From the NCBI GenBank assembly GCA_964521375.1, contig CAZFRK010000001.1, positions 1 through 38,583 of the forward strand: a stretch of DNA of 38,583 nucleotides, written 5' to 3'. A model generated the notes under the pieces. It saw only the letters and a program-made list of their open reading frames with translations. It searched no databases and had not been told where the DNA came from. Below, piece by piece: positions 8,378 through 25,555 of this stretch (position 1 is the first letter of the stretch; every line of letters starts with the position of its first letter). Source of the DNA: an uncultured Rhodobacterales bacterium (GTDB lineage: Bacteria > Pseudomonadota > Alphaproteobacteria > Rhodospirillales > Rhodospirillaceae). The position numbers and the translations under genes are program-made.

Positions 8378-8394
8378 CCCAAAGCGAGGTTACG

Positions 8395-9027: not shown

Positions 9028-9116
9028 GAGCACAGCCATACTGCCGAAGGTCATTGCCGCCGACGCTGGCGGCGAGATGTTACGGTAAGTACATGCATGT
9101 TCAGGGAGCCAGTGTC

Positions 9117-9437: not shown

Positions 9438-9657
9438 ACAGCAGATGGCCGCCGTTCGTGCGGTGTGCCGTCGTCGCGGCTTGGCGGGTGACGACCTCGA
9501 TACGCCGTCCAATGACGGGATGCGTCGGACGGTGAAGAAGCGCCTGCTTCTCCGGAAGCTTGAGGAGAGCCAGAGGGTTCAAGGACGCGCTCCCATTTTC
9601 CCGGCAAACTTCTGAACACCTCACCGCTTTTCACGCTTTCGTGCCGGCGGTGTCTTG

Positions 9658-10860
9658 CTACGCGCCCAAGTTGGCCGTCGGCAGATACGGCTCCGCGCCG
9701 AACGGCCGGTTGATCACAACCAGGGCTTCCGTGGCGACGAAGATGCGGTTCCGGGCATACCCCGTCCGCTCCGTCACGATCCCCGCCTCGGCCAACTGCT
9801 CCATGGCGCCGGCCGCCGACTTGAAGCTCACGTCAAGCGCCTCCGCCAGGCGGTTGACCGTCAGCACGGGGTAGTGGGGCAAAAGGCCCAGGGCGCGCAA
9901 AGAGGCGGACCCCTGCCGGAATGGCCGACGGGTCTGCCAGATCTGCGCCAGGTCGGCGAGCGCCGTGCGCGTCGCGAGAAGTTCTGCCACCGTTCCCACC
10001 ACCGCGTCGGCCATAAAGCCGACGATTGGATCCCACTCCAACCGCTGCTGGGCCGCCTTCAGGGCGTCGTGGTAGGCGCCCTTGTGGGCCTCGATGTAGG
10101 GCGAGAGGTAGAGCGGCACGGTGCCCTCCGCCGCCATCATAAGGGGCAGCAGAAGGCGGCCCACGCGGCCGTTGCCGTCGCGGAAGGGGTGGACCGCCTC
10201 GAACATCGCATGGGCCACCGCCATCCAGGTCAGAAGACCCTGGGTCATGACCTGCATCCCGTCGCACTGCATGTAGTCGATGACCTCGCCGAGGCACTTC
10301 GGCACCTGGGCGGGTGGCGGCGGATTGAAGGTGGAGTAGGCGATGCTCGCGCCGCCGCCAATCCAGACGACGCGGTCGCGGAGTCGCCCCGGAGTGTCCT
10401 TGTAGGCGTCGTCGTCCCGCATGACCTGCCGATGCAGGGCGGAGATGAGGTCCTGGGTAAAGACGGCATGCCCCCTGTCTTGGGCGACCGGGATCCACTG
10501 GTCCAACGCCAGGGCATAGTCCCGCACCTGACGCGCCGCCCCCGAGGCGCTGCCGTCCTGTGTCTCCTCGATAGTCAGGAGGTCCTCAAGATCGCATTCA
10601 ATGCCTTCGACCATGCACGATGCCGTCGCTTCCTGCCGGCGGAGGATGCCGTCAAGCGAGTGAGCGCCGGGGAAGTTTGCCTGCAAGGCCTCAGCTTTGC
10701 CGATTGCCCTGTCAGCCGCGCTGATCAAGGCGCTTTTGTCGCCCAGGGGAATGGCTTCTCTCGGCGGAGCCGGAAGCACAACGCCGTAGTGAGCGCCGTA
10801 GGGCGCCGGAAGGCGGCACAAATACCGCTGGACGGCAGCTGGTAACTCCTCGCGGCGCAT
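9658..10860 (-). CDS. Fic-family protein (class II, intramolecular inhibitory helix) with C-terminal winged-helix domain
   Basis: Fic active-site motif HPFRDGNGRVGR. An upstream SCMVEG matches the (S/T)xxxE(G/N) inhibitory motif. The C-terminal LTVNRLAEALDVSFKSAAGAMEQLAEAGIV is wHTH-like. Confidence 0.9.
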   Translation of the reverse strand: MRREELPAAVQRYLCRLPAPYGAHYGVVLPAPPREAIPLGDKSALISAADRAIGKAEALQANFPGAHSLDGILRRQEATASCMVEGIECDLEDLLTIEETQDGSASGAARQVRDYALALDQWIPVAQDRGHAVFTQDLISALHRQVMRDDDAYKDTPGRLRDRVVWIGGGASIAYSTFNPPPPAQVPKCLGEVIDYMQCDGMQVMTQGLLTWMAVAHAMFEAVHPFRDGNGRVGRLLLPLMMAAEGTVPLYLSPYIEAHKGAYHDALKAAQQRLEWDPIVGFMADAVVGTVAELLATRTALADLAQIWQTRRPFRQGSASLRALGLLPHYPVLTVNRLAEALDVSFKSAAGAMEQLAEAGIVTERTGYARNRIFVATEALVVINRPFGAEPYLPTANLGA

Positions 10861-11112: not shown

Positions 11113-12441
11113 TTGCCAAAACCCTCAGCGGACGCCGGTGAAATGCAGGCAAAGCCCCATCTTTGGCCGGGCCGCCCGAAGCTCCTTCCGGGAGAGAGTC
11201 TCTCTTCTTGGTTTGGGCGAGTGGCCGCCGCCAACGCCTTGACACCCGACGAGCTCTATCGGGTGGTGGTCCCGGGCGCGCACCTGCACAGTCGCGACCT
11301 CGACCGCGAGGCGTGCGAGAGCCTGATGGAAACCATGACATCCAACACCGGCCAGGAGCGGCGCGCGTTGGACGATGCGGTTCTGAGTCGGTGGCTTGGC
11401 ACCCTGTACGGGGAAGATGACGGCCGCTGTAGGCTTCCGTGGCTGCCGCCGATCGGCCGTCATAACCACGCTAAGTCGTTCGGGCAGCAGTACTGTCCGC
11501 AGTGCCTCGTGACCGAAAAGACCCCCTATTTCCGGCTCGAATGGCGGCTGTCCTTCATGACCGCCTGTCCGCGACACCTCACGCTGCTCATCGACCGCTG
11601 CCCGAAGTGCGCCGAGCCCGTCATCCCACTGCGGACACTACGTCACCAGGGCCGCCTCCTCTGCGGCAAATGCCATGGCGATCTCGCTGAGGCCGAGTCG
11701 GTCCCGGTACCCTGGAGCAGCCTGGCGCTGCAGACCCGCCTTCGCCAGGTCGCCGGCGAAGGCTGGGCGGAAGACGGCGATGGGCGCCCCGTGTTCGGCC
11801 TGGCCTATTTCGCATTAGCCCGGGCCATCTTCCGCCTCCTCTGTTCAAGCACAACGGCGCGTGCACTGCGGGCATGGGCGGCGGAGGAGGCCGACCTCGA
11901 CATTCGCGTGGAGCACATTCCCAGGGTGAAGGAGGTGGAGCGACTGACCACGTCCCGGCGCCACGACCTCCTTCAGCTGGCTTGGGTTTACCTTCGGGAC
12001 TGGCCCCATGCGCTCATCGAAGCCTGCCGTAAGAACCACATCCCGCAATGGCACTTGTCGCACCATCGCGAGGCACTTCCCTTCGCCTTTGCGGAAGCCG
12101 TCCTTCCGGCCTTGGCCGCTCCAGTTCGTCGCGTAGATGCTGCAGAACTGGAGGCGGCAAAGGAGTTCCTGGTCCGCCGGGGCTTTGTCCCGACCTACGA
12201 CGCGCTTCAGGGCCTCCTGGGCGTCAAGTTCGAGGCTAACCGGCACGTCGCCGAACCGGCCGACGAGCGAGCGTCCCACGGAACGGGGCGCTACTGGAAA
12301 CTGGATGGCGTCGATCCCGATGTTCGTCGCGCCGTACTGCACGAGGCCCACAAGAACGGAGAGAACGTTTCGGCGTGGGTTGAACGGACTCTTTGCCATG
12401 CCCTGAAAAAAACGAACGTCGTTTTCACGTCTGACGGGTAA
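11113..12441 (+). CDS. tniQ: TniQ/TnsD-family target-selection protein
   Basis: N-terminal TniQ signature WPGRPKLLPGESLSSWFGRVAAANAL. Zinc-ribbon Cys pairs CPQC...CPRH...CPKC...CGKC. TTG 11113 has GAGGGAGA upstream, and ATG 11143 is an alternative start. Confidence 0.85.
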   Translation: MPKPSADAGEMQAKPHLWPGRPKLLPGESLSSWFGRVAAANALTPDELYRVVVPGAHLHSRDLDREACESLMETMTSNTGQERRALDDAVLSRWLGTLYGEDDGRCRLPWLPPIGRHNHAKSFGQQYCPQCLVTEKTPYFRLEWRLSFMTACPRHLTLLIDRCPKCAEPVIPLRTLRHQGRLLCGKCHGDLAEAESVPVPWSSLALQTRLRQVAGEGWAEDGDGRPVFGLAYFALARAIFRLLCSSTTARALRAWAAEEADLDIRVEHIPRVKEVERLTTSRRHDLLQLAWVYLRDWPHALIEACRKNHIPQWHLSHHREALPFAFAEAVLPALAAPVRRVDAAELEAAKEFLVRRGFVPTYDALQGLLGVKFEANRHVAEPADERASHGTGRYWKLDGVDPDVRRAVLHEAHKNGENVSAWVERTLCHALKKTNVVFTSDG

Positions 12442-12477: not shown

Positions 12478-13113
12478 ATGCCAGTCCGCAAGGTCCCTCG
12501 CAACTACTGCAACGTCACCGGTCTGACCGCAATTCCCGGGCAGCGTTCCGTGCGGGTGGAATCGACTCTGGAGCGCGACTTCGTCTTGCGCACCATCTTC
12601 CACCCGAAGTTCCGCCACATCGAGGAACAGCCCCTGGTCATTCCGGTCCCGGAGACGGCCGGCAAGTACATCCCGGACTTCCTGGTGACGTGGGAGGGCC
12701 GGCGCGAGCTGATCGAGGTGAAGCCCGCAGCGAAGCTTGTCTCAGACAAGGCGCGCCTCAGGCCCCGCTTTGCCGCCGCGAGAGCCTACTGCCGATCAAG
12801 CGGCCTTTCTTTCCGCGTCGCGACGGAGGCGCACATCCGGGGGCCATACCTGGATAACGCTCGCTTCCTCATGCCCTACAGGCATCGCGAGGTCGATGAT
12901 GACCTGCGGAATCGCCTGCTGGGATCCCTGCAGGGCGGAGGGCCCTGCTCGTTGGAAGAGCTCCTTCAGCGGGCCACCGGGAGCGACCGCCTCGCTGCTC
13001 TGCCTGTCCTATGGCACCTACTCGCCAACTTCCGCGTCCGCGTCGACCTGAACGCCCCCATCGACATGAACAGCATCGCCAAGCCGGCCAGGGGGAAGCC
13101 ATGGGCCGCTTGA
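12478..13113 (+). CDS. tnsA: TnsA-like endonuclease
   Basis: Restriction-endonuclease-like E...D...K arrangement: ESTLERDF, YIPDFLV, LIEVKP. 211 aa, sits directly upstream of tnsB and overlaps it by 13 nt. Confidence 0.8.
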   Translation: MPVRKVPRNYCNVTGLTAIPGQRSVRVESTLERDFVLRTIFHPKFRHIEEQPLVIPVPETAGKYIPDFLVTWEGRRELIEVKPAAKLVSDKARLRPRFAAARAYCRSSGLSFRVATEAHIRGPYLDNARFLMPYRHREVDDDLRNRLLGSLQGGGPCSLEELLQRATGSDRLAALPVLWHLLANFRVRVDLNAPIDMNSIAKPARGKPWAA

Positions 13114-14990
13114 GCTTCCAACCCGGCGCTGTTGTCCGCTACCAAGGACGATCCTGGATCATCCAGCGAGCCGTCAGCGCCACTGAAGTTCTTCTCGAGC
13201 GGCGCTCCGACCGGCACCGGCAGACGGCGCAGGTGAGCGTGCTTCAGCCGAACAGCCCTGTGGCCGAAGAGCCTGCGGTTGTCCACGCGGCGCGCGCGGA
13301 AGCAGAGCTGGATGAAGCCAGGAGGAGGCTCCAAATTATCCAACCTCTCCTTCAGAAGGCACGGGGAAAGACGGCGCGACAGGCCGAGGTCAGTGCCCAG
13401 ACGGGAGTTCCAGAGCGGACCCTGAGGCGCTGGTTACGCGCCTACACAGCGCGTCACCGACTATCTGATCTTGCTCCGCGACGGACCATGCGAGAGATGC
13501 CGACACGCGTTCCCAGGCGCCTGGAGAAGCTGATGGCCAAGGTCATTGAGCAGCACTGCGTCGGTCCGCGCCCCCTCAGCCAGGTAGCTGCCCATCAGAT
13601 CTTACAGCGGGAGTGCCGGAAGCTGCGTATCGACGCACCCTCCATCAACACCTTCCGTGATCGGGTTCACAAGGCGCGCAAGGCCCTCCGCGAGAAGGCG
13701 CCGCCCCTTGAGCATCAACCTGTGAGAGGCCCCTTCCCCGACGCGCCTTTTCCCCTGAGCTGCATCCAGATCGACCACACGCCCGCTGACGTCTCTTTGG
13801 TCCACGAGGAGTCACGGCTCCCCATCGGCCGCCTGTGGATGACCGTGGCCATCGACGTCTACTCGCGCATGATCATGGGCTACTACCTGTCCCTCGACCC
13901 GCCCTGCACCTTCTCCGTGGCCATGTGCATAGCCCAGGCAGCCCTTTCCAAGGAGGCCCATCTCGAGCGCTTCGGCGTCGGCGGGACATGGCCCACCTGG
14001 GGCAAGGGCATCACATGGCACGCGGACAACGCCCAGGAGTTTCGCGGAAACACCATCGCGCGCTTTTGCGAGGAGCATGGGATCCACCTTCTATGGAGGC
14101 CGGCGGGGAAACCGAACTTTGGCGGCCACATTGAGCGTCTGCTCGGGACGTTCGCTGAAGACTTCAAGAAGCTCCCCGGCTCGACTCATCGTCCAGACAA
14201 GAAGGATAAGCACGACCCGGACAAGACTGCTGCGATGACGCCAAGAGACTTCGAACGCCGCCTGTTGGAGTTGATCGTCAACGACTATCACGTGAGAGAG
14301 CACTCGGCTTTGGGCTGCTCACCACTGCAGAAGTGGGAGCAGGGCATCATTGGCCACGGATCGCAAAAGGGGACGGGGCTCCCCGAGCCCGTACAGGATC
14401 CCCTTCGCTTCTGGCGCGATTTCCTTCCGTTTGAAGAGCGGACCGTCCAGCGGGAGGGCATTGTCTGGGACGGCATCACCTACTACGCCGACGCGCTCCG
14501 CCCCTGGATCCGGGCGTCGAAAGGCGGCCAGATGCAGAAGTTCGTCGTCCGTCGCGACCCCCGTGACATAAGCCGGATCCTGTTCCTGGATCCGGAGATC
14601 AACGACTACCTGGAAATTCCGTACCGCGATATCAGCCGCCCCTCGACGTCGATCTGGGACTGGCGGGCTGCAAAGGCCGCCCTGCGCCGTGAAGGACGCG
14701 CGAACATCGACGAAGACGCCATCTTCGAAGCCCAGGAGCGGATGGACGCTCTGGTTGCGCAATCGGTCAGCGAAACCAAGAAAGCACGGCGGCGCGATCA
14801 ACGCCGACGGATAGGCGCACCTCTGCCGGCAGCTATCGAGAAGGCAGCCCAGGACAAAAGTCCGGCCTCTCCTCCTGTCCCGGCCGCCAACCACCCACAA
14901 CGCCTGGCCCTGATCGTCGATAACACGCAGTCAGACGACGAATACGACATTCCCGACGACGTCTACTCAACTCGGCTGGAGGAACTGTGA
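13101..14990 (+). CDS. tnsB: TnsB-type DDE transposase (Mu/rve superfamily)
   Basis: ATG 13101 (MGRLSFQPGAVV...). N-terminal HTH regions, then a DDE core with IQIDHTPADV and WHADNAQEFR, and an acidic C-terminal tail. Confidence 0.9.
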   Translation: MGRLSFQPGAVVRYQGRSWIIQRAVSATEVLLERRSDRHRQTAQVSVLQPNSPVAEEPAVVHAARAEAELDEARRRLQIIQPLLQKARGKTARQAEVSAQTGVPERTLRRWLRAYTARHRLSDLAPRRTMREMPTRVPRRLEKLMAKVIEQHCVGPRPLSQVAAHQILQRECRKLRIDAPSINTFRDRVHKARKALREKAPPLEHQPVRGPFPDAPFPLSCIQIDHTPADVSLVHEESRLPIGRLWMTVAIDVYSRMIMGYYLSLDPPCTFSVAMCIAQAALSKEAHLERFGVGGTWPTWGKGITWHADNAQEFRGNTIARFCEEHGIHLLWRPAGKPNFGGHIERLLGTFAEDFKKLPGSTHRPDKKDKHDPDKTAAMTPRDFERRLLELIVNDYHVREHSALGCSPLQKWEQGIIGHGSQKGTGLPEPVQDPLRFWRDFLPFEERTVQREGIVWDGITYYADALRPWIRASKGGQMQKFVVRRDPRDISRILFLDPEINDYLEIPYRDISRPSTSIWDWRAAKAALRREGRANIDEDAIFEAQERMDALVAQSVSETKKARRRDQRRRIGAPLPAAIEKAAQDKSPASPPVPAANHPQRLALIVDNTQSDDEYDIPDDVYSTRLEEL

Positions 14991-15874
14991 TGCGGCAATT
15001 CGAGCTCTTCCCGCGTTCGGACTACCTCCAGTCGGGCCTTCCTGAAACGGGCGATCGGTCACGGATTTCCCAGCTGTTCCGGACCGGGTGGGTGCCCTAT
15101 CCGGTTGGGCTCAAATGCCTGGACATGCTCGACCAGCTACTCCACCGCCCTCCAAGCCATCGCCCGCCCTGTCTGATCCTTCACGGCGACAGCAACAACG
15201 GCAAGACGACCATCGCGCGGAAGTTCCGTAAGGACAAGAACCTGGACACGGTGGCCACGAGCGACCAGGCCCACATGCCGGTGCTGATGGTCGAGACACC
15301 AAGCAGTGACTTCAACATCTTCCTCAGCCTCGTTTTGCGCGCCCTGAATGCGCCGGATCCAGGTTCCAGTCGGGACCGCCGGCTCCACCAGGTGCTCAAC
15401 CAGCTGCAGGCCACCCGGGTGCGCATGCTGATCATCGACGAGATCCACAACATCCTGTGCGGCAAGACAGATCAGCGGAACGCCTTCATGAACGGGCTGA
15501 AGTTCCTCAGCAACCAGCTGGAGATCCCAATGGTCCTGATCGGCACCATTGAGGCTATGCGCGCCGTGCAAACAGACCCTCAGCTGGGGAATCGTTTCGA
15601 GCCGTGCCAGCTCCCGCGATGGAAGAGCGATGCCAGCTACGCGCAGTTCCTGGGCGCCCTCTGCGCCACCATGGGCCTGCAGGAAGGCGGCAACTGGAGG
15701 TCGCCCCGCCTGACCAGCCGCTTCCACGCGATGACCGAAGGCCTGACCGGCGAAACCTGGAGCTTGATGGCTCGTGCGGCGGAAACGGCTATTCGCCTCG
15801 GAACTGAGGTGATCGACGACGCCACCCTGGACAAGACGCACTGGGTTCTACCGAGTGAGCGCCGGAGGGGCTAG
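14990..15874 (+). CDS. tnsC: TnsC/TniB-type AAA+ ATPase
   Basis: Walker A in LHGDSNNGKTT and Walker B in MLIIDEIHN. The start overlaps the tnsB stop (GTGATG). Confidence 0.88.
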   Translation: MRQFELFPRSDYLQSGLPETGDRSRISQLFRTGWVPYPVGLKCLDMLDQLLHRPPSHRPPCLILHGDSNNGKTTIARKFRKDKNLDTVATSDQAHMPVLMVETPSSDFNIFLSLVLRALNAPDPGSSRDRRLHQVLNQLQATRVRMLIIDEIHNILCGKTDQRNAFMNGLKFLSNQLEIPMVLIGTIEAMRAVQTDPQLGNRFEPCQLPRWKSDASYAQFLGALCATMGLQEGGNWRSPRLTSRFHAMTEGLTGETWSLMARAAETAIRLGTEVIDDATLDKTHWVLPSERRRG

Positions 15875-15911: not shown

Positions 15912-16262
15912 TCATTCTCGAGGGGCCTGGAGGTCTGCGATCGCCTCCAACAACTTCGCTATAGACTTTGCCCCCTCCGGAGTCTCATCCCAGATGCGGC
16001 GCATGCCAGACTGAGCCACCTCCCATTCAGGGGGTGCGTCCTCTGTCGGGGCCTCTAGACGCGGTACGCTTACCCCTAGAACCCTGCAGACCTCCACGAC
16101 ATTGTGGCTGAAGGTCTTGAACCGACCCGTACAAATTCTGGCGACTTGGCTTGGGTGAACGTTCGATATTCGCCCAATCTCGGCCCATGACAGTCCCGAG
16201 CTTGAGCGGGCCTGCGCGATCTTTTCCCCAAGATCGGTTAATTGCTTGCGAGTAGGCTTCAT
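15912..16262 (-). CDS. XRE-family HTH transcriptional regulator
   Basis: MKPTRKQLTDLGEKIAQARSSSGLSWAEIGRISNVHPSQVARICTG is a classic XRE helix-turn-helix. It is divergent from the NADAR gene, and the start (16262 versus an upstream Met) is uncertain. Confidence 0.7.
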   Translation of the reverse strand: MKPTRKQLTDLGEKIAQARSSSGLSWAEIGRISNVHPSQVARICTGRFKTFSHNVVEVCRVLGVSVPRLEAPTEDAPPEWEVAQSGMRRIWDETPEGAKSIAKLLEAIADLQAPRE

Positions 16263-16297
16263 GCAAATTAGCATGCATAGTGACGAGCAAATTTGCA
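16262..16297. promoter_or_regulatory. Operator-like inverted repeats in the XRE/NADAR divergent region
   Basis: TGCAAAT (16262..16268) and ATTTGCA (16291..16297) are inverted. The perfect palindrome GCAAATTTGC (16287..16296) abuts the NADAR Shine-Dalgarno AAGGAGG. Confidence 0.45.
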
Positions 16298-16308
16298 AGG
16301 AGGCTTTG

Positions 16309-16791
16309 ATGGACGAAATTCGCTTCTATCGCGCGAATGAAAAGCCGTACGGCGCGTTCAGCAATCTCTACCGCCGAACGATAGTGTTTGAAGGGGAGGT
16401 GTTCGCAACAAGCGAGCATGCCTACCAAGCAGGCAAGGCGCGAAAACCCGCCGTGCGGAAATGGCTCATGGACGCACCGACCCCGGCGCTACTCGCAATG
16501 GCGGCTCATGGGCTCTACTACTGGGATGTCGCGCCCGGCTGGTCATCAACGAAATTCGACCGAATGAGGGCCGTGCTACGGGCCAAGTTCACGCAACATG
16601 AGGATTTGCGCGAACTGCTTCTCTCTACTGGCAATGCAAAGCTCATAGAGACCGCGACGGTGGATAACGATGTCAACCGCCTCTGGGGGGAAGTTAAAGG
16701 GGTCGGCAAAAATATGCTTGGCGTTCTTCTAATGGAACTCCGCGACGACTTGCGAGAAGACGCAGACAAGGCTTACATTGCCGCGGAATAG
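16309..16791 (+). CDS. NADAR-family protein (YbiA/DUF1768-like; ADP-ribose/N-glycosidic-bond hydrolase family)
   Basis: ATG 16309 is preceded by AAGGAGG at 5 nt. Motifs FYRANEKPYGAFSNLY, FATSEHAYQAGK and LWGEVKGVGKNMLG are typical of the family. Confidence 0.88.
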   Translation: MDEIRFYRANEKPYGAFSNLYRRTIVFEGEVFATSEHAYQAGKARKPAVRKWLMDAPTPALLAMAAHGLYYWDVAPGWSSTKFDRMRAVLRAKFTQHEDLRELLLSTGNAKLIETATVDNDVNRLWGEVKGVGKNMLGVLLMELRDDLREDADKAYIAAE

Positions 16792-17723
16792 CGCTCGCCG
16801 CCTTCCGACAGGAGGCTACGGACGTACTCGGCATCCCGGTGCCGGAATAATCCCCTTGCACCAGCGAACGCGCAGTTCTCTGCCGCCAGCCGTTGCCCTG
16901 CGGTCACCCCCCTTAGCAGACGTGCCGCCTTAAGCGCATGCGAGCTCAGATGGTTGGTCAGCAGCCAGTCTATGACTCCCACGCTGACCATGTCTCCCGA
17001 GCCGCACGTGTCTACGACGGCGGGCGCGCTGAACGATGGACACCAAAACACGTCCGTTGCGTCGCGCAGCTCAAGACCTGCGGCCCCATAGGTGACGATC
17101 CGCACACAATCCGTGACCTCATCGGCTAGGCGCTCGCCCAGCCGGTCGTCGGAATACTTAAGGATCGAGCATAACGAAATCGCTTCTTCGAAAAGATGAT
17201 CGTCCTCAATTTTGGACGGCTCAAAGAAGACAACAGCGCCAGAGGCGCGAGCAATCTTTAAAGCCTCCAATATCCCGTGGGAGAGACGGTCAACATAGAA
17301 GACGCTACAGTTGGTGAGGACGGGCAAGGCCTGAGCTAGCTCCAGCTCACCGATGGGATGATATCGAGGAAAATCCTCGTTTGTCTCCGGACAGACGAAG
17401 CTGAAGCTGTGCAAACCGAGACTTGGGTTGAGGGTCTGCGCGAGCACCGGAGATCGAAGACCCGGCCGACGGTAGATGTACTCCACGACCGCGCCCGCCT
17501 GGATAAACTCGTTGATGAGCCTTTCACCCTCACCGTCGTCACCCAGAGCAAGCACAGGCGCCACGTTTCGGTGCAACATCGCCAACGAGAGCAGCACATT
17601 TCCACACGAGCCGCCAAGGGCTTCGCCAGCCAGTCCGCCATCTGTGTACAAGCGGTCCAGAACCGTAAATCCTGTTCCGGAGACATCGGCCCGCCAGTTG
17701 CGAACGCATTTTGAAATGGACAT
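16773..17723 (-). CDS. PfkB/ribokinase-family sugar or nucleoside kinase
   Basis: N-terminal GG motif LGGSCGNVLLSLAML and C-terminal anion-hole/catalytic motif VVDTCGSGDMVSVG. The 3' end overlaps the convergent NADAR gene by 19 nt. Confidence 0.88.
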   Translation of the reverse strand: MSISKCVRNWRADVSGTGFTVLDRLYTDGGLAGEALGGSCGNVLLSLAMLHRNVAPVLALGDDGEGERLINEFIQAGAVVEYIYRRPGLRSPVLAQTLNPSLGLHSFSFVCPETNEDFPRYHPIGELELAQALPVLTNCSVFYVDRLSHGILEALKIARASGAVVFFEPSKIEDDHLFEEAISLCSILKYSDDRLGERLADEVTDCVRIVTYGAAGLELRDATDVFWCPSFSAPAVVDTCGSGDMVSVGVIDWLLTNHLSSHALKAARLLRGVTAGQRLAAENCAFAGARGLFRHRDAEYVRSLLSEGGERYSAAM

Positions 17724-17744
17724 ATGAGCCGGAAGATCAGTTTG

Positions 17745-19682
17745 TCAGTGGCTGTCAAGCGCCAGCAGTTCACTGTCTATGCAAACGCGCCCTTCTGGTG
17801 AGTGTACCAGAGAACGCAGCACTCTGAGAAGGGCCTCCGGGCCGGTGGGCCTGTCTCCGAAAAGCGACCAGCATCCGTCCGGCGCATCACAAACATCACC
17901 GACACTGATACCGAATGCGTGAGAGAGGAAAGCGTGATCGTTGCCGCTCCGGGAGCCGCTATCACCGAAGCAGAGGATCTCGCTTCCGGGCTTCGCAGCA
18001 ACCCGCAGCGCCTCTACAACCTTAAGCTTGCTAGACGCAGCGGGTACGACGTCATAACTGTGGCCCGAGCTCGTGATGCGAAGATCTCCGGAGGCCAAAA
18101 CAGGGCACTCCGAAAAGTCTCCGACGAACCTGTCGGGGTGCTTCAGGGCATCCATCCCAATCGTGATCTGGAGAGCTCGAACCTTGAAGTCGTGCGCCTC
18201 AAAGAGATCACGTCGAGTCCACAGCCAAGCAGCCGCGCCCTCTATTGCTGGATGTCGCTCAATGAGCTCGTGCTCAATATCCACGTCAGCTGTCCGCAGT
18301 AGGCCGCCGTTGTAGTAGCCGACCACCACGGATCCAACCATCTCCGGCGGAAGGAGACTCCGCAGTTCCTCTCCAACGGAACCACCGCGCCCTGTCGCTA
18401 TGCCGATTTCGACGCCCGCATGGTGGAGCCGAACTATCTGCTCGATGATTCGGGGCTCTGGAGGTCCGAAGCGGCAGTCCGTAGCGACGAGAGTACCGTC
18501 GTAGTCGAAGACTGCGCCGCCAATTTCAGCCTTTAAAAGCGCCTCTACGCGCTCCTGGTTGGTTGAAGAAAGAGTCTCGCAATCGGCCTCCTGACCCCCT
18601 GTGCGCGCCATTGCGGAACGCTTATGGCGTACGCTCGTGGTCAGTCGGCTGGCCACTTGGGCCAAAGATCCGGCCTCATATATTGATCGACCGAAGTCGC
18701 CAACACCAGGCTTCCCCGGATCGATTTCCAGTATAACGCCGAGCCCCTCAATGATGCCGAAGCCATCAATCAAAGCCGACGCGTTATCCAAGCGACTGCA
18801 AGAACCATGGTCCAAGGCTGCACGGCGAATCGAAGAAGGCAGAACGGCATCAATTGCTCGCCACGAAGACCGAGAATCCACCCCAGTGAGCCCCAATACG
18901 AAAGTCTCTTCGGCCCGATGGTGCAGCCAAGTGTGGCGGCCGTGCGCTAGGTTGCGGATATCTGTCGTCTGAATGGGGCACAGTGCGGCTTCCCATAGTG
19001 ACGTATCCAGCAACACAGCCAGCGGACGCAGAAGCGGATCTGCTGCTAAGATGAGCGTGTCGGTCCTTCGAATGCCGTCAAATAGCTCCCTCACTTCTTC
19101 TCGAGAAATTGGTTCTAGACACCGGGCGAGCCGCTCGGCCAATAACGACAAGAGAGCGTCCCGGCCGAGTGGTTCTCGCGAAGCCAGATCGCTCCCTAAA
19201 AGCAAGGCGGTGACTGAGGCCATCAATGAATGCGTGGCGAGATAACCGTCCTTCGCATCGGCCACGGGTACGAGATGAACCGTGCCATTTCCACGCCTGG
19301 CAATCTCTGCGGCTGCGCCTTTCTCGTTCCTGGTAACGAGGTGGAGTCGTCTGCAACCTCGGTCGAGGGCAGCCTGGGCAGCGGCTGAAATATCGGCGTT
19401 GTCTCCGCCGGCACTGAACAGCCACACCTCGCTTTCCGCAAGGCCCTGCAACTCGAGGACAGCTTGCATTGGAGTCTGGACGGATGTCGGGCCAAGGCTA
19501 AGCGTATCGCGGCAGCGCGCAAAGTACTCCGCAGCAACTAATGATCCGCCGGACCCGACCGCCAGCGCGTGCCGGCCGCCCCCCTGCCTCAGCGCCGTCG
19601 CCAAACAAGACGGGTCAAATGTCTCAAACAGGTTTAGCGTACTGGGAAGTGCGTCCAGTTTTTGGTTGAATACATTCAGCAT
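17745..19682 (-). CDS. Fusion protein: N-terminal (tandem) SIS phosphosugar-binding domains + C-terminal HAD-IIB phosphatase
   Basis: SIS-like HALAVGSGGSLVAAEYFA and VWLFSAGGDNADISAAAQAALDRGCRRLHLVT. HAD motif I GAVFDYDGTLV, motif II GIATGR and motif IV CFGDSGSRSGNDHAF (the GDxxxxxND of Cof/OtsB-type IIB). Confidence 0.8.
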   Translation of the reverse strand: MLNVFNQKLDALPSTLNLFETFDPSCLATALRQGGGRHALAVGSGGSLVAAEYFARCRDTLSLGPTSVQTPMQAVLELQGLAESEVWLFSAGGDNADISAAAQAALDRGCRRLHLVTRNEKGAAAEIARRGNGTVHLVPVADAKDGYLATHSLMASVTALLLGSDLASREPLGRDALLSLLAERLARCLEPISREEVRELFDGIRRTDTLILAADPLLRPLAVLLDTSLWEAALCPIQTTDIRNLAHGRHTWLHHRAEETFVLGLTGVDSRSSWRAIDAVLPSSIRRAALDHGSCSRLDNASALIDGFGIIEGLGVILEIDPGKPGVGDFGRSIYEAGSLAQVASRLTTSVRHKRSAMARTGGQEADCETLSSTNQERVEALLKAEIGGAVFDYDGTLVATDCRFGPPEPRIIEQIVRLHHAGVEIGIATGRGGSVGEELRSLLPPEMVGSVVVGYYNGGLLRTADVDIEHELIERHPAIEGAAAWLWTRRDLFEAHDFKVRALQITIGMDALKHPDRFVGDFSECPVLASGDLRITSSGHSYDVVPAASSKLKVVEALRVAAKPGSEILCFGDSGSRSGNDHAFLSHAFGISVGDVCDAPDGCWSLFGDRPTGPEALLRVLRSLVHSPEGRVCIDSELLALDSH

Positions 19683-20833
19683 GTACGGCCCGCCTCACTA
19701 TAGCTTTCGTACATCGGCCCCGACAAAATCAGGTGGACCATCATGTCTGGCCTATCTGGCGAGGGCGCGGGGACACCCTCAATGGCATAGCTCTCCATTT
19801 CCAGATATTGGACAGCCATACCATGCTCTATAGCTGCCATGAGCGCGCCAGCCGCCAGAACCTTGCTACCGATTGGGGAGAGCACCATGCGCGGCTCAAA
19901 GGTGCCTTCCATTGTCCGATCAAATCGGACCTTCAGGGTCGATAGCGTGCGGTAGCAGTCTAGAGGGTTCTTCTCGGACGCATATACTACGTCTCTAGGA
20001 TCAACCAGCCACTCATTGACCAGGGCAATCTCGTATTCGGATAGAAGGTCGTCAGCACGCCGAGGATTCCGCGAGGGAAACGGAAGGAGCGGGCAGATCT
20101 TGTAGCATCTGCCAATCGCGATCCCGATCTGGGCCAACGCTGACGCCCTCCCCCGCGCTAGCTGGGGGATCCAGATCTGCGCCAGGTCTTGCTCTCCATC
20201 CGCTTCGGCAGGCAGCGCAAAACCTTTCACGGCACTGGGGCGGCTCCACGGCGTCCCCACAATCCTGTCGTCCATCTCCGGGTTGGAGACAATCATGAGA
20301 TGGAAGCTTCTGTTGGCTGCGGACTCGCAGTCCTCTAACAGCATCCTTGCTGCGGGAAAACCCACGCCGATGGAAAGAGCGCTCAGGTCAAGAATAACAT
20401 CGGTGACTTCATCCGGAACCTGATATTCCGTCAAGAGCTTAACTATACGAGCCCCTCCGACCGGCGCACTGTCATCAGCAAAAATGTCTACCCGAAGGAC
20501 GGAACAATCGGGAACAATTCTCCTCAACGTCTCCTCATTTTCATCCGCCAGCGCCAGAAGATCGTCCGACGGCGCAGGTCGTTCTTCACGAATGAAAATG
20601 GCACATAGTCGGGACCCCATCACATCAGCCAGCATTTGTGCAATCCGCCTGGATCTGGGATCGAAACCGGCAGCAGCAACAAGGAGAACACGTCTTGCGG
20701 GATTTCTGAAATAGTCTCTCGCGAAATCTTCAACGTCTTCGTCAAAGTTCGTTATACAGTTCTCCCAATGACTACGCATCTTCAAGTCCCGCAACATCTC
20801 GAAGGTAGCTGACTTTTTTTGGTATGAACCCAC
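19676..20833 (-). CDS. Uncharacterised 370-385-aa protein (two Rossmann-like halves; no family recognised)
   Basis: Long ORF embedded in the operon. The stop overlaps the SIS-HAD ATG (ATGCTGA). Candidate starts are 20833, 20797 or 20779; the last gives an 8-nt overlap with the NTPase stop. Confidence 0.7.
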   Translation of the reverse strand: MGSYQKKSATFEMLRDLKMRSHWENCITNFDEDVEDFARDYFRNPARRVLLVAAAGFDPRSRRIAQMLADVMGSRLCAIFIREERPAPSDDLLALADENEETLRRIVPDCSVLRVDIFADDSAPVGGARIVKLLTEYQVPDEVTDVILDLSALSIGVGFPAARMLLEDCESAANRSFHLMIVSNPEMDDRIVGTPWSRPSAVKGFALPAEADGEQDLAQIWIPQLARGRASALAQIGIAIGRCYKICPLLPFPSRNPRRADDLLSEYEIALVNEWLVDPRDVVYASEKNPLDCYRTLSTLKVRFDRTMEGTFEPRMVLSPIGSKVLAAGALMAAIEHGMAVQYLEMESYAIEGVPAPSPDRPDMMVHLILSGPMYESYSEAGRTC

Positions 20834-22679
20834 CTCGATGGAAGGTGAGCCCGTGAACCAAGCATACCGTCCCAGTCAGCTCTACCAGAGCCCAAAGCTT
20901 TCCCCCTTGTCCGTAGTTCCGCTCAATCGTAATTGCGCCGTTCGCGATGGCATGCTTAAGAATGATCGCAAGATCGTCATCGGCCGGAAGCGAGTCCATC
21001 TCTTCCTCAAGGATGCCGATCGCATTTGCGCCATAGCCGAGAGGAGCATTCGGAAGAGTGGATTCGGCCATGCATTCTCTACCTATCGCGTCAACCATCT
21101 CTCTTACGCGCTGCGCGTAGGCGAACGGCCAGTCGTCCATTATCTCCTTTGCCTTCCTCACAAGAACGGATTGTTGCTCCCGGGCAGAGAGAGCTAGCGG
21201 TCTGTTTCGAATCGCGCGAGTTTCGATACTTGCAACCAGAGCCCCTGTAAAACGAAGGAATCGTTCTGCGTTTCCGTCGCTGGCATCGCAAATTCTGTCA
21301 ACGCCATAATGTAAAGGCCGCCCATATTCATGATAGAGATGGAGCCGCGCCCCATTTGCGACGTAAGAATCCGCCTTTAAGGGCATTGCGATATCTGCGT
21401 CCAACTCTTCGAATAGGGAGGGCGTGGAGCGGGCGACCCTGATCGCATAGCGATGGAGTAGAATGCGCGTCATCGCAAGGTGGATGTCTTTTCCCTTGTC
21501 ATAAGACTTGGACCGCCCTAAGTACTCGGCAACTATATTTTCAATCTCTCGCCGCCGCGACTTTGTAACGCCGAGACTTTCCTGCTCCTTAGAAACCTTT
21601 TCTTCGAGCTGCCTAAACTGGCTGTCTGTTAGTGACGGAGGCTTGCTCGGAAGCAAACGATCAATGTCGGTAACGTTGCCAATTACCTCCACCCGAGGAA
21701 GGTATCGCCCTGCCATATCACGCGCCACCGCTCGAAACTGCCGACGAACCGAATCCGATTTTTCGTGGTCCTGCATGCGAATGTCGATGAAGTCGCGACC
21801 AATAGAACGATTATGCGTCGGCTGACTGCCAGAGGAACGCAAAACGGCACCAGGGCTCAGCGCGTCCAACCGCATCATCAACCAGCGTCCGAACTTCATC
21901 TCTCGATGAGATAGCATTCCGAACATGGCTTCGAGTTGATCGTGGTGCAGCGCATGAATATCGTCCAGCATGACCAGAGGAACCAATTCTATCGCCTCGC
22001 CCTTCCACTCTATGCGAATCCTGCTAATGGCATCGAAAGGAGCGTAGGGCGCCGTTGCGTCTTTCGGCAAATCTTCAAGTTTCGGTGGACGGAGTCCCGC
22101 ACCCACGGAGTAGATGGCGCGCTGTACCGCGAGAGCCCTATCTCGGATACCGGCGGTCGAGAGACCGCCAATCTGCTCTAGATGAGCCTCGTAATTGGCA
22201 CGCGGAACGAACTCGATTTCCTGGATGCTGCGGGTGTTGTTAACTGTCAGGTTCCTGATCAGCCCAAGCACAGCGCGGGCCTGCACCAACCAGAACGCAA
22301 GCTTTGCTTTTACCGCCGGCTCGTACGGCAATTCCCAGAACTCGCGATACTCCGACTCCATCGGCACCCTCACGGCCGCTACATGAGGTCTGCCATCCCG
22401 AAGAAAACCCGCCCTCGCCAAATCGGCGGCCAGTGACCTATTGGTGAGATTGGTCTCGTCCCTCAAGATGATTTCCACCATCTTGAATTCGGCCAACCTG
22501 GCCAGCGTGGTCTTACCGCTGCCGGGTGAGCCAATTATGCGCACCGGCAAATCGAACACTTCGTCTTTATGTTTGCTCGTCGCGAGGAATGTCGTCAGCG
22601 GCTTGGGACTGACGATCGACAGAAAAGCCTCATCATCGCGAACATACTCAGTTGCTCGCCGAAGGAATGGATTCGCCAT
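20772..22679 (-). CDS. Large P-loop NTPase (AAA+/STAND-like) with ~400-aa uncharacterised C-terminal region
   Basis: Walker A in VRIIGSPGSGKTTLARL and Walker B in LVPLVMLDDIHAL. The ATG lies 6 nt after the upstream PRTase-like stop. Confidence 0.85.
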   Translation of the reverse strand: MANPFLRRATEYVRDDEAFLSIVSPKPLTTFLATSKHKDEVFDLPVRIIGSPGSGKTTLARLAEFKMVEIILRDETNLTNRSLAADLARAGFLRDGRPHVAAVRVPMESEYREFWELPYEPAVKAKLAFWLVQARAVLGLIRNLTVNNTRSIQEIEFVPRANYEAHLEQIGGLSTAGIRDRALAVQRAIYSVGAGLRPPKLEDLPKDATAPYAPFDAISRIRIEWKGEAIELVPLVMLDDIHALHHDQLEAMFGMLSHREMKFGRWLMMRLDALSPGAVLRSSGSQPTHNRSIGRDFIDIRMQDHEKSDSVRRQFRAVARDMAGRYLPRVEVIGNVTDIDRLLPSKPPSLTDSQFRQLEEKVSKEQESLGVTKSRRREIENIVAEYLGRSKSYDKGKDIHLAMTRILLHRYAIRVARSTPSLFEELDADIAMPLKADSYVANGARLHLYHEYGRPLHYGVDRICDASDGNAERFLRFTGALVASIETRAIRNRPLALSAREQQSVLVRKAKEIMDDWPFAYAQRVREMVDAIGRECMAESTLPNAPLGYGANAIGILEEEMDSLPADDDLAIILKHAIANGAITIERNYGQGGKLWALVELTGTVCLVHGLTFHRGGFIPKKVSYLRDVAGLEDA

Positions 22680-22685
22680 GACGTG

Positions 22686-23876
22686 TCAGCCGTGTCTATC
22701 GCGACGGAAGAACAATGAAACCATCTTTCTACCCTGATGACCACCAGTCTCCGCCCAAAGGAGCGGGATGGAATTATTAGGAGTGTTATGCTCGAGGACT
22801 ACTGGGAGAGCACAATTAGCATATCCGAACCGCATGTCGGCCTGGCCGGCCTCCCGGCAGTGCTTCTCAAGGCGTATAAATAGATCGTGATCATAATATT
22901 TCTGCGCCAGTGAAACAATGGCATCATCTTCACTGTTCGTTGGGGCTGTGGAGGTGGGTTCATCTCCAACATGTGCGACCTTTATATCATTTAGCAACAG
23001 AAGACCTTCCGTGATAATGGCGCTCCGGTAGCTCTTATCGCGCATTACCTTGTCGGCTTCCTCCACACGTTCGAGCAGCGCTTCTCGTGCTTGAGCCGTC
23101 GAAATATAATGATGTATGTGTAGATTGTAATTTTCCGACAGAGGAAACTTGTCCCCTAAAGAACGTTTAGCCTCCGCCACAATGGCTTCGAACTTCGCAA
23201 GCTTTCCTTTGGGCCTTCCCTCCGGAAATCGGATAAAAGTAGTGCCTGAAGCGGTGAAATCATCTATTAAGTATACGTCATCAAACTTAGCCCCTATTCC
23301 AAGGTCGCCCTGAATATCATCTGCCAAGCTTCTCCATTTATCATGATCAATGTTCATCATGGGAACCACCTGCTCCTGAGACAGGCGGCCTGCGTTTGCC
23401 CGGCGAAGAGCATCAATCCGGCTGCCATCGCTAAGACCAACAAAGAGGCAGCGGCGCAACCTTTTTGCGAATGCGTGAGCAACCTGAGGGGACTTCCAAA
23501 CCTCGTATGGCCTCACATCAAATTCTTCGGCGACAGATCGACGCAGATAAGGAATTACAACCTCTGGCACAAACGTCTCTATGAGCCGCTGCATCTCCAG
23601 AGCCGATACGTAAACTAGGCGAGTTTTGATGAATTCATAAGCGTGAGACCTGTCCTCTTCATCGAAGTGACGCAGCCAAGATACCAAGGTCTCTAGGAAG
23701 CGCACGCCAGCGCGAAAATCGGAATATCCGTCATATTTCATAGACGACATGAGAGTCAGCCATGAGTACTCCTTTGTGGCCTTCTCGTTGTCCCACCTCA
23801 TCACGCTGGCAATGAGGTTAAGAGCGAGGATATTTATCATGATCGACTCTTGCCCGTACGTCTTATCCCGCTGCAT
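22686..23876 (-). CDS. Phosphoribosyltransferase-like protein with long helical N-terminal domain
   Basis: PRPP-binding loop DDVYLIDDFTASGTTF. The track ORF extends to TTG 23972, but that codon is preceded by TCTCCTCCT with no SD. ATG 23876 or 23840 is the more plausible start. Confidence 0.8.
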   Translation of the reverse strand: MQRDKTYGQESIMINILALNLIASVMRWDNEKATKEYSWLTLMSSMKYDGYSDFRAGVRFLETLVSWLRHFDEEDRSHAYEFIKTRLVYVSALEMQRLIETFVPEVVIPYLRRSVAEEFDVRPYEVWKSPQVAHAFAKRLRRCLFVGLSDGSRIDALRRANAGRLSQEQVVPMMNIDHDKWRSLADDIQGDLGIGAKFDDVYLIDDFTASGTTFIRFPEGRPKGKLAKFEAIVAEAKRSLGDKFPLSENYNLHIHHYISTAQAREALLERVEEADKVMRDKSYRSAIITEGLLLLNDIKVAHVGDEPTSTAPTNSEDDAIVSLAQKYYDHDLFIRLEKHCREAGQADMRFGYANCALPVVLEHNTPNNSIPLLWAETGGHQGRKMVSLFFRRDRHG

Positions 23877-24333
23877 CTCAAAATGAGCGGCAGCGCCAAG
23901 CACAATCCTGGCACGATCGCAGGCGTTTTCAAACCTTGTAGATTGGGGCGAGTATCGGAGACGCTTCGACAAGGAGGAGAAGACGCCGCGCGGCCTGCCA
24001 ATGGGGACATGAAACTTGATATTCGCCTGGGTACGGTCGGGTTAATGGTGACAGTGGCAGCTATGCCCTCCGTCTGCGGACGGGTTCCCCGCTCCGGGGC
24101 AGTTCAGCCTCCCTGAACTCGCGATCCCAGCAACCCGCTTTAGGGGGCGCTGAGGAGGGCGACCGGAGGAATGTTCCGATGAGACGGAAGAATGCCCCCC
24201 CCTCGGCCGCTTATTTTTCGCCCTGAGCTAGCGCGTTATCATAACGATCGAAAATTTTACATAGGAAGTTTGACTACGCTAATTCGGCGCAATGCGTTTG
24301 GTCTGAAAGATTTATTTGTAAACCAGTTGGCAT

Positions 24334-24343
24334 CTGACGTCAG
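24334..24343. promoter_or_regulatory. Perfect palindrome CTGACGTCAG in the AT-rich region upstream of the cargo operon
   Basis: Read directly. It lies ~360-460 nt upstream of the candidate PRTase-like starts. Confidence 0.3.
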
Positions 24344-24488
24344 CCTTGATGAAATCATAAATGAACTGAGCAGACATAACCGTAGGAAGCGGTAGCGTCC
24401 CAGTCTTTGCCTGACGAGCAGGCGCGGCCGGAGGATGAGGACTGCGCCTGTTCCCATCAGGCGCTGCTGAATGCTGGTAGGCCATCAG

Positions 24489-25307
24489 CTAACGCGTCGG
24501 CCCAGGCGGCTCCACGAGCGGATGGCGAAGGATCTCCATCGTCTCCTTCGCCTGTGCGAGCCAGCGGCGGCATTCGCGATTATCGGCGAAGGAAACGCCA
24601 ATCACCTCTTCCTGATTGACGTCGTAGAGGGCATAGCGCGGTTTGCCATGCGAAACGCTGATGCGGAAGAGGAGCGCCGGATGGCGCGTCTCGAACCGCA
24701 CCGCCCGCGTTTCCGGCGACACCACAGGCAGATTGTCCTTGAACAGCGAGCGGAACTCGTCGTCGATCTCGCCATGAAGCGCCAGGCGCTCCGCATGGTC
24801 GTCCGGCCTTAGACCATGGAACGAGTCCAGGACGTTGGCCAGCGCCACTTCCCTGGCCATCGGGAGAAGCTCATATGCGGGAGGCGTCAGCTGCTCGGCG
24901 CCGGCATCGCCGTCCACCACGTGGTGCCTATCCGGCATCAGGATCAGGATCTTGCGGAACAACCCGGTGAGCCCGGCCAGGACCTCGCTCTCGGAGATTG
25001 GCTCCACCATCGCATAGGTGTTGGCGCGGCACGTCTGGTTCCACCGATGTCCAGCAACAGCGCGTAGCGCATCGACGCGCTCCCGGTGCCACGCGGCCCA
25101 GACGTAGGCCTTCCAGCTACCGTCCTTTTCGGGACGAAGGCGGGCTAATCCGAGCCCGTCGGCTGGGACATCCAGGTGCCGTCCCAGCTCGGAGAGGAGC
25201 TTTCGATGCTCGCCGGCCATCTGTGGCAGCGGGAGGCCCCGGCAGTAGTCTATGATTTCCTCGAATGTCTTCCTCGCCAACGGGTCCTCACTACGCCGGT
25301 GCGCCAT
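24489..25307 (-). CDS. Hypothetical protein (272 aa) next to the distal transposon end
   Basis: ATG 25307 is preceded by AGAGGGGGA. I recognise no motifs. A hairpin CAGGCGC-N18-GCGCCTG lies just downstream (24419..24450). Confidence 0.6.
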   Translation of the reverse strand: MAHRRSEDPLARKTFEEIIDYCRGLPLPQMAGEHRKLLSELGRHLDVPADGLGLARLRPEKDGSWKAYVWAAWHRERVDALRAVAGHRWNQTCRANTYAMVEPISESEVLAGLTGLFRKILILMPDRHHVVDGDAGAEQLTPPAYELLPMAREVALANVLDSFHGLRPDDHAERLALHGEIDDEFRSLFKDNLPVVSPETRAVRFETRHPALLFRISVSHGKPRYALYDVNQEEVIGVSFADNRECRRWLAQAKETMEILRHPLVEPPGPTR

Positions 25308-25555
25308 CACGTCCCCCTCTTCTGCTAACCGGTGTCCAGGTTGGAGAAGACGCTCTCGCGACGCAAGCCGCCAAACGGCACTGGCCGGTTGAGCTCCGTT
25401 CGGCTAGTTCGGATGCGGGGAGACGTTTTCTGCTCGCACTGGAATCCCGCAAGACTTCTGCAGGGGCGCATTGAGTTCCATTTACGCGAGACGGCTGCAT
25501 CGCCTGCTGGTCGATACCTACAGCCTTAAAATCCCACAGTACGTCCGCAATCTTC

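Follow-up and report, generated by a model that had tools for sequence, protein, structure and literature searches.

We analysed a 38,583-nucleotide (nt) stretch of DNA from an uncultured Rhodobacterales bacterium (contig CAZFRK010000001.1; "the window" below means this whole stretch), with attention to two minus-strand genes, one encoding a 645-amino-acid (aa) protein in which two SIS domains are fused to a HAD domain (17745-19682) and the other a PfkB-family sugar kinase of 316 aa (16773-17723). An earlier note on this DNA had likened the pair to the isomerase, kinase and phosphatase of ADP-heptose synthesis. We propose instead that the fusion and the kinase are the two obligate small-molecule enzymes, or phosphosugar arm, of a self-contained five-gene system which is horizontally mobile and belongs to the defence (biological-conflict) type, a reading to which we assign a probability of roughly 0.55. 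The three partners are a phosphoribosyltransferase-like protein (PRTase-CE), an ORC/Cdc6-like (AAA+) P-loop ATPase and a CARF-like protein. The domains of the five proteins are identified, their active-site motifs are intact, and the genes co-occur strictly, on mobile elements and in defence islands. Since the fusion and the kinase are fixed parts of a defence-like mobile operon, their chemistry probably takes place on a sugar phosphate and is unrelated to cell-envelope synthesis.

The operon runs on the minus strand from 23972 to 16773 as five densely packed open reading frames (ORFs). PRTase-CE is its first gene here (22686-23972; Pfam PF24390), followed by the ATPase (20772-22679; PF24389), the CARF-like protein, which has 385 aa and two tandem Rossmann-like domains (19676-20833; PADLOC PDLC01910), the fusion, and the kinase (Pfam PF00294) as the last gene. 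Both in the window and in other copies the gene junctions are abutting, overlap by a few bases, or consist of a stop codon directly followed by an ATG. The gap between the stop codon of the fusion and the ATG of the PfkB gene is exactly 21 nt, as the earlier note had given it, and the ORFs, the spacing, the structure matches and Pfam agree on a SIS-SIS-HAD fusion followed by a PfkB kinase. The absence of a nucleotidyltransferase also stood, as Pfam, NCBIfam and PADLOC detected none in the five operon proteins. The GC content of the operon is 51-59%, as compared with 67-75% in the flanks.

We examined how constantly the five genes travel together in 83 loci, of which 80 were fetched by the fusion protein alone and 3 were further loci. 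These loci come from Alpha- and Gammaproteobacteria, Acidobacteriota, Planctomycetota, Bacteroidota, Actinomycetota, Chloroflexota and archaea (Methanoregula, Thaumarchaeota). When the window proteins were compared with them by tblastn, PRTase-CE, the ATPase, the CARF-like protein and the PfkB kinase were found in nearly every locus of sufficient length. At least four gene orders occur; PRTase-CE, ATPase and CARF-like protein are always contiguous in that order, and the fusion and PfkB genes shift around this block. All-against-all clustering of 1376 ORFs from the loci yielded exactly five families present in 71-82 loci, followed by NADAR (36 loci) and an XRE-type helix-turn-helix (HTH) protein (32 loci); the next family was a large serine recombinase in 8 loci, and nothing else ranked higher. 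Similarly, in a set of 72,556 plasmids, the fusion and PRTase-CE each occur in 20 records, of which they share 19, and the CARF-like protein occurs in 19; half of the fusion-carrying plasmids (10/20) are conjugative. This strict co-occurrence indicates that the unit to be explained is a five-gene system, not a two-gene pathway, and it was this unit that the earlier note had missed. The fusion itself is a fixed architecture, as judged by its end-to-end matches: among 1.84 billion representative proteins it forms at least 710 clusters at 50% identity (E<=1e-30), and nearly all of the 150 clusters listed have 620-660 aa and match over their whole length. The RefSeq labels of the family members are generic ("HAD hydrolase family protein", three times "hypothetical protein", "PfkB family carbohydrate kinase" and, in some cases, "sucrose-6-phosphate hydrolase").

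Some single records of these sets deserve mention. The plasmid NZ_CP117256.1 of Rhizobium tumorigenes (about 467-481 kb) has two matches each to PRTase-CE and to the CARF-like protein, and its best fusion match (40% identity) is separated by about 8 kb from its best PRTase-CE match (67.5%), suggesting two diverged copies of the five-gene system side by side. Apparent fusions of the ATPase to the CARF-like protein in three loci (L024, L027 and L072) were rejected, as a stop codon is directly followed by an ATG at the junction, and other over-long ORFs in the loci were found to be artefacts of ORF extension.

The N-terminal half of the fusion (residues 1-345; 18648-19682) is, by sequence profiles and a structure model, a double SIS module of the amino-sugar/ketosamine-phosphate clade (GlmS/NagB-II/FrlB). 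The earlier note had suggested checking the domain boundaries by hidden Markov model (HMM) search, and this check succeeded in part: Hydrolase_3 and PfkB were found, but the SIS domains stayed below the Pfam thresholds and had to be placed by structure and profile. When the fusion was cut in three and searched at E<=10, SIS_2 alone appeared, at E=0.084, so that a sequence-to-HMM search alone would have missed the SIS call. In the AlphaFold model of the fusion (pLDDT 81.7), about 340 residues superpose on double-SIS enzymes in Foldseek, the best matches being the NagB-II glucosamine-6-phosphate (GlcN6P) deaminases 7kqa and 8fdb (TM 0.74-0.76, E 6e-11, probability 1.0), followed by the isomerase domain of GlmS, FrlB (8glr) and FraB (9ou6); among the 50 matches listed, all are double-SIS enzymes. 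A profile built from 22 diverse N-terminal halves (23-69% identity) matched NagB-II 8eol (2.9e-7) and Lmo0035 2aml (1.8e-5) in the PDB, with the Glu and His-Gly of the fusion lining up with the E..HG of 2aml. The full-length fusion profile gave weak HAD matches and spurious L11 matches, in contrast to the profiles of the separate halves.

The phosphate loops of the first SIS domain are GSGGS (43-47) and FSAGGDNAD (89-97), the catalytic candidates of the second are Glu231 and His247, which lie 16 residues apart, the His being followed by Gly, and the module ends in a tail motif, IDPGKPG..FGRSIY. Invariant in the 22 N-terminal halves are the GSGGS loop including G43, G45 and G46, D97, G146, E231, D241, R243 and H247-G-R-H250. 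A comparison with the active site of GlmS, another step which the earlier note had advised, placed E231 on E488 by hhalign (the GlmS pair being E488/H504), and the E-x15-HG pattern is common to the fusion, E. coli GlmS and E. coli FrlB. With Glu231 and His247 kept, the double SIS looks catalytic as far as its sequence tells.

A low-confidence linker in the AlphaFold model (residues 346-385; 18528-18647) leads to the C-terminal half (residues 386-645 and the stop codon; 17745-18527), a HAD-IIB phosphatase or phosphomutase domain. Pfam Hydrolase_3 covers residues 391-462 (3.8e-6), and the NCBIfam model HAD-SF-IIB (TIGR01484) matches just above its cut-off (41.9 bits vs 41.8). A profile from 22 diverse C-terminal halves matched HAD-IIB structures only, every PDB match at E<=0.03 being an enzyme of this class, with the sugar-phosphate phosphatase BT4131 at the top (1.7e-7) and PfHAD1, YidA, PMM1/2, sucrose-phosphate phosphatase, T6PP and SupH among the others. 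The HAD-IIB (Cof-like) assignment of the earlier note thus holds. The cap, which that note had proposed to examine, is an alpha/beta insertion at about residues 457-545 between motif II (T430) and motif III (K552) in the AlphaFold model, which would be the C2 position. HAD motifs I-IV are kept across 21 to 75 homologues (DYDGT 393-397, TGRG 430-433, K552 and GDSGS..GND 573-582), and the core of motif IV is invariant (G573, D574 and G580-N581-D582). Since class IIB holds both mutases and phosphatases, the label "phosphatase" is an uncertain one.

The kinase is a clear member of its family (Pfam PF00294, 54.3 bits vs a cut-off of 25.8). The motif GGSCGN (36-41), the sugar-binding Asp23, FEPS (167-170) and DTCGSGD (238-244), which contains the catalytic Asp of DxxGxGD, are kept in 70 kinase homologues. 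The NCBIfam equivalog models reached 12-39 bits, as compared with cut-offs of 292-561; the top partial match was ribose-1-phosphate kinase (8.9e-10, 38.5 bits vs 330), partial matches also included fructokinases, and the best PDB match was a fructokinase (1.3e-5). Loss of catalytic residues, an outcome that the earlier note had named as speaking against functional enzymes, was not seen in any of these domains, the HAD, SIS and PfkB motifs all being retained. As a separate observation, three cysteines (Cys39, Cys110 and Cys284) and a histidine (His105) stand out in the alignment of 70 kinases, the cysteines being kept in 80% or more of the sequences and the histidine in 95% or more. As far as we know, PfkB kinases do not typically have these residues, which could form a metal or redox site.

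Of the three other proteins, PRTase-CE matches its Pfam family (PF24390, 1e-20) and the PADLOC model PRTase_III-A (1.3e-13), and the motif of the phosphoribosyl pyrophosphate (PRPP) loop, L.DDF.ASG (235-243), as well as HNTPNN (395-400) are kept in 71 homologues. These homologues align from residue 57 onward only; the mechanical ORF start is probably placed too far upstream, and translation is likely to begin with Met45 (ATG at 23840), giving 384 aa. PRTase domains are known to swap the diphosphate of PRPP for a base or an amine, yielding N-(5-phosphoribosyl) products (PMC5512222). They serve as toxic effectors in ShosTA/PsyrTA (10.1101/2022.05.11.491447) and likewise in retron systems (PMC11961720). 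The ATPase was detected by the Pfam family ORC-CDC6-like (28.7 bits vs a cut-off of 27), with an invariant Walker A (GSPGSGKT, 51-57) and an equally invariant Walker B-like DD (239-240); its PDB profile matches cover the P-loop region alone.

The CARF-like protein matches the PADLOC model CARF6--CARF_CARF_CARF (PDLC01910, 1.3e-106), with no Pfam match and no PDB sequence match. Its AlphaFold model (pLDDT 84.7; structure prediction used database homologues) was found by Foldseek to resemble tandem USP-like or generic Rossmann-like domains, with a partial match of 151 columns to the CARF domain of Can2. The database gene call starts at Met19 (20779) and gives 367 aa, so that here, too, the mechanical ORF start is probably too far upstream. 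In distant loci, the ATPase and the CARF-like protein show 21-28% identity, as compared with 29-36% for the enzymes, and are thus the fastest-evolving members. When the operon and the adjoining NADAR gene were scanned with PADLOC v2.0.0 (2023), single-domain models only were matched (PRTase_III-A, CARF6 and, for NADAR, PDC-M42C); the ATPase, the fusion and the PfkB kinase had no match, and no complete named anti-phage system was matched.

The surroundings of the operon point to mobility. In the window, Tn7-like genes for TniQ (11113-12441), TnsA (12478-13113), a TnsB-like protein (13011-14990) and TniB/TnsC (14987-15874) are followed by the HTH gene, the NADAR gene and the five-gene operon, which appears to be cargo of a Tn7-like element. 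A plasmid copy in A. tumefaciens likewise adjoins TniQ, TniB and a transposase, one in Rathayibacter adjoins a SIR2 protein and an integrase, and other copies adjoin a KAP NTPase and Abi_C, or ThiF/JAB. The earlier description of the cassette as mobile and low in GC was therefore well founded, given the GC difference, the Tn7-like genes and the plasmid copies. Among 150 sampled flanking ORFs we found integrases, resolvases, transposases and conjugation genes, together with matches to the defence genes Septu PtuA, AbiEii, Drt4, Drt6, PARIS AriA, PD-T7-3, PDC-S27 and PDC-M01A. No transporter, lipopolysaccharide (LPS) or capsule gene was found among the families recurring in the flanks of 82 loci. 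Such flanks are the signature of a mobile defence-type module, an association and not a proof.

The two accessory genes next to the operon are more restricted. The NADAR gene (16246-16791, plus strand; Pfam NADAR 3.8e-25, NCBIfam TIGR02464 1.1e-22), encoding a ribosyl N-glycosidase, is convergent with the PfkB gene and overlaps its 3' end by 19 nt; the small XRE-type HTH regulator (15912-16298, minus strand; Pfam HTH_31, 4.1e-7) is divergent from NADAR, their 5' regions overlapping, and travels with it. Among the 83 loci, tblastn detected NADAR in 47 and the HTH gene in 43, and the records concerned are without exception alphaproteobacterial or unclassified proteobacterial. These loci are mostly those in which the SIS motif reads T(S/N)xWE instead of ESKxxE, one exception being L066, which has NADAR and yet keeps the Lys. 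As ribosyl N-glycosidases, NADAR domains act on both phosphoribosylamino intermediates and derivatives of ADP-ribose (PMC9503650), and their presence in alphaproteobacterial and related loci fits a chemistry centred on N-ribosyl-phosphate bonds.

The comparison with known systems shows where the resemblance ends. GlmS, NagB-II, FrlB and FraB have the same double-SIS fold (Foldseek TM 0.7-0.76) and the Glu-x15-His-Gly signature; the phosphate loop of GlmS, S-Q-S-G-E-T-A-D, is similar to S-A-x-G-x-N-x-D in the fusion, as is the GSGGS loop, and the tail motif of the fusion resembles the C-tail of GlmS. However, their identity to the fusion is 11-20%, none of them carries a fused HAD-IIB domain, the counterpart of GlmS Lys485 is Ser in the clade of the window, and the fusion is found only in the five-gene system, never in amino-sugar or Amadori catabolic operons. 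The closest known pair of a PfkB kinase and a double-SIS enzyme is FrlD/FrlB, the fructoselysine 6-kinase and 6-phosphate deglycase of E. coli. The transporter FrlA, the epimerase FrlC and FrlR have no counterpart in our operon, whereas the HAD fusion and the mobile conflict context are the operon's own.

The ADP-heptose pathway, from which the earlier note had drawn its logic, uses the same formal classes of enzymes, namely a SIS isomerase, a PfkB kinase and a HAD phosphatase, but the resemblance proved to be formal only, with no relation to GmhA, HldE or GmhB beyond the superfamily level. GmhA is a single SIS as compared with the double SIS of the fusion, and GmhA chains appeared at E 0.025-0.6 in the PDB profile searches, in contrast to 2.9e-7 for NagB-II. 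The HldE kinase model (TIGR02198, rfaE_dom_I) gave 19.4 bits for our kinase against a cut-off of 345. GmhB belongs to a HAD class other than IIB, and GmhB-type HAD models gave no match to the fusion at E<=0.1. The adenylyltransferase and the LPS context of the pathway are both lacking in the five-gene operon. Of the interpretation put forward in the earlier note, the mobile and non-envelope character (no orthology to envelope-sugar enzymes and no LPS or capsule loci were found) and the retention of active sites survive, while the ADP-heptose analogy does not. The pair is still most naturally read as pointing to a dedicated phosphosugar that serves as a signal or as a donor.

With respect to defence systems, ShosT/PsyrT, the retron PRTase effectors and the CRISPR-associated PRTase_III-A proteins of PADLOC use a PRTase fold, as does PRTase-CE with its intact PRPP loop. 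Our operon, however, is without a DprA-like antitoxin, a retron or a CRISPR locus, the PRTase_III-A models of PADLOC match PRTase-CE and the ShosT model does not, and the partners differ, being an ORC-like ATPase, a CARF-like protein and two sugar-phosphate enzymes. CARF/SAVED systems (type III CRISPR, CBASS) likewise combine a CARF-family sensor-like protein with enzymes acting on nucleotides or ribose, but neither a Cas10 nor a CD-NTase cyclase is among the five recurrent families, and the CARF-like protein has no fused effector. The PRTase, the kinase, the SIS or the HAD enzymes would have to be the source of any signal.

From these data we infer a possible order of steps, a type of substrate, a link to the PRTase and an anti-phage role. 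The ATPase and the CARF-like protein would form the sensing and switching part, and PRTase-CE would make or use a 5-phosphoribosyl compound. Kinase, isomerase and HAD domain would be a three-step line acting on one phosphorylated sugar, in which PfkB may phosphorylate a free sugar, a ketosamine or a sugar-1-phosphate, the double SIS, with Glu231 as base and His247 opening the ring, may interconvert an aldose and a ketose, an amine probably being gained or lost in the process, and the fused HAD-IIB domain may take off or shift a phosphate. The product, a dedicated phosphosugar or aminosugar phosphate, might feed PRTase-CE for the synthesis of an unusual nucleotide-like signal or toxic analogue, or might itself be the ligand read by the CARF-like protein.

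Several points weigh against the five-gene defence reading. The 83 loci were chosen via the fusion, and the reverse direction was checked in the plasmid set only. A homologue of the fusion was not found in 50,697 phage genomes. The CARF label derives from a PADLOC model and a generic Rossmann-like fold, the operon has neither a signal-making cyclase or nucleotidyltransferase nor a classical killing domain (nuclease, pore or NADase), and the presumed role in defence comes from association alone. The kinase fits no characterised substrate subfamily (ribokinase, fructokinase, ribose-1-phosphate kinase, FrlD or HldE) at the NCBIfam cut-offs, so that no substrate can be named. The clade of the window carries Ser228 (DTSLWE) where most other clades carry the Lys (ESKxxE) that corresponds to GlmS Lys485; with this Lys-to-Ser change three residues before Glu231, the chemistry may differ. 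Finally, hhalign gave a probability of 26% against the single E. coli GlmS sequence and of 13% against FrlB, and these alignments were used for residue mapping alone.

As to what the phosphosugar arm does, the synthesis of a signal or analogue ranks first in our estimate, followed by an eraser function, metabolic depletion and an activated-sugar donor similar to that of the ADP-heptose pathway. In its full form the first of these is a new immune pathway, which we put forward only tentatively: SIS, HAD and PfkB would together make a pentose or hexose phosphate of a non-canonical and possibly aminated kind, PRTase-CE would couple it to a base to give either an antiviral nucleotide analogue or a new nucleotide-like second messenger for the CARF-like protein to read, and the ATPase would gate the process.

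Much less probable than the main reading is an alternative in which PfkB and the double SIS act like FrlD and FrlB and the HAD domain dephosphorylates, so that ketosamine (Amadori) or ribosylamine adducts made by PRTase-CE are cleared; the module would then protect or reset the host, with NADAR as a second eraser for the unrearranged N-glycoside. The standing of FrlD/FrlB as the closest known pair, the presence of FrlB (8glr) and FraB (9ou6) among the structural matches, and the E-x15-HG pattern held in common with E. coli FrlB all fit this alternative, as do the activity class of NADAR (PMC9503650), its occurrence in 47 of 83 loci, and the N-(5-phosphoribosyl) nature of PRTase products (PMC5512222). 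On the other hand, such products are already 5-phosphorylated and the kinase would seem needless, the hhalign probability for FrlB is low (13%), and no transporter, epimerase or FrlR-like gene is present. In addition, the fusion and PfkB are universal, but 36 of 83 loci, among them every non-proteobacterial one, lack NADAR.

We consider it rather unlikely that the two enzymes serve as an effector by metabolic depletion, arresting the infected cell either through a futile cycle of kinase and phosphatase which burns ATP, or through a NagB-II-like deaminase and a phosphatase which drain hexosamine or pentose phosphates. The lack of a classical toxic domain, the GlcN6P deaminases at the head of the structural matches and the co-encoding of a kinase and a phosphatase, both active-looking in sequence, are consistent with depletion. 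It is, however, an inference only, for which our literature search gave no precedent among characterised defence effectors; the fusion of isomerase and phosphatase points to a directed pathway, not a cycle, and PRTase-CE would be left without a role.

More doubtful still is a donor pathway in which phosphate is moved to the anomeric carbon and the resulting sugar-1-phosphate is attached to DNA, RNA or protein via PRTase-CE. The enzyme classes are the three of ADP-heptose synthesis, a 6-to-1 phosphate shift is plausible as HAD-IIB includes phosphomannomutases, and ribose-1-phosphate kinases head the partial matches of the kinase. Against this, the kinship to GmhA, HldE and GmhB goes no further than the superfamily, neither a nucleotidyltransferase nor a glycosyltransferase was found in the operon or its recurrent neighbours, and known PRTases require a 1-pyrophosphate donor (PMC5512222). 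The notion that ordinary sugar catabolism or envelope genes merely sit beside a three-gene conflict system, for which the generic RefSeq labels including "sucrose-6-phosphate hydrolase" might speak, is very improbable, as it is contradicted by the strict co-occurrence across phyla, gene orders and 19 of 20 plasmids, by the lack of any recurring transporter, LPS or capsule gene in the flanks, and by the failure of every kinase subfamily model to reach its cut-off.

Parts of the triad of PRTase-CE, ATPase and CARF-like protein are already catalogued: Pfam lists PRTase-CE and ORC-CDC6-like under consecutive accessions (PF24390 and PF24389), and PADLOC holds the CARF6 model. We did not find the five-gene system with its sugar-phosphate enzymes described in the literature searched; surveys of CARF classification or of nucleotide-centric systems may mention the triad, and an earlier comparative-genomic mention is possible. 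The system is not described in PMC9503650, PMC7159879, PMC11754643, PMC13092281 or PMC9704534. In the literature examined, the signals of known defence systems are nucleotides made by cyclases or TIR proteins, killing is carried out by nucleases, pores or enzymes depleting NAD, ATP or dNTPs, and no defence system has a sugar-phosphate isomerase, a sugar kinase and a HAD-IIB enzyme as its obligate core. As far as this literature shows, the system is a conflict system centred on CARF and PRTase with an unprecedented obligate phosphosugar module.

If the new immune pathway were true, immune signalling or chemical defence would arise from sugar-phosphate metabolism, with neither a cyclase nor a nucleotidyltransferase. 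The strict conservation in at least 710 clusters, the spread over bacteria and archaea on transposons and conjugative plasmids, and four enzymes that look active make the system a tractable candidate for new immune biochemistry. Its output could be a small-molecule signal or an antiviral metabolite, either of them new, or else a writer and an eraser of phosphoribosyl adducts working as a pair. A function would also be assigned to two Pfam families, PRTase-CE and ORC-CDC6-like, and to a family of CARF-like proteins for which Pfam has no model.

Upstream of the operon, a 273-aa ORF (24489-25310, minus strand) had no Pfam, NCBIfam or PADLOC match and no counterpart in any of the 83 related loci; between it and the operon lies an AT-richer intergenic region of about 500 nt (23973-24488) containing no Rfam family. 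An Rfam scan upstream of the operon for a riboswitch, such as the PRPP riboswitch, gave a tRNA as the sole match, and a promoter and terminator scan of the operon gave signals no higher than shuffled controls. In the low-GC stretch that also holds the Tn7-like genes and the operon, two further minus-strand genes match defence models of PADLOC, namely the Thoeris TIR protein ThsB (6628-7332, 3e-120) and the Fic-domain defence protein SoFic (9658-10860, 7.5e-68). No ThsA partner was recognised beside ThsB, the nearby ORFs at 7539-8156, 8193-8645 and 9051-9512 having no PADLOC matches. This low-GC stretch begins directly after a tRNA-Gln gene (6251-6324).

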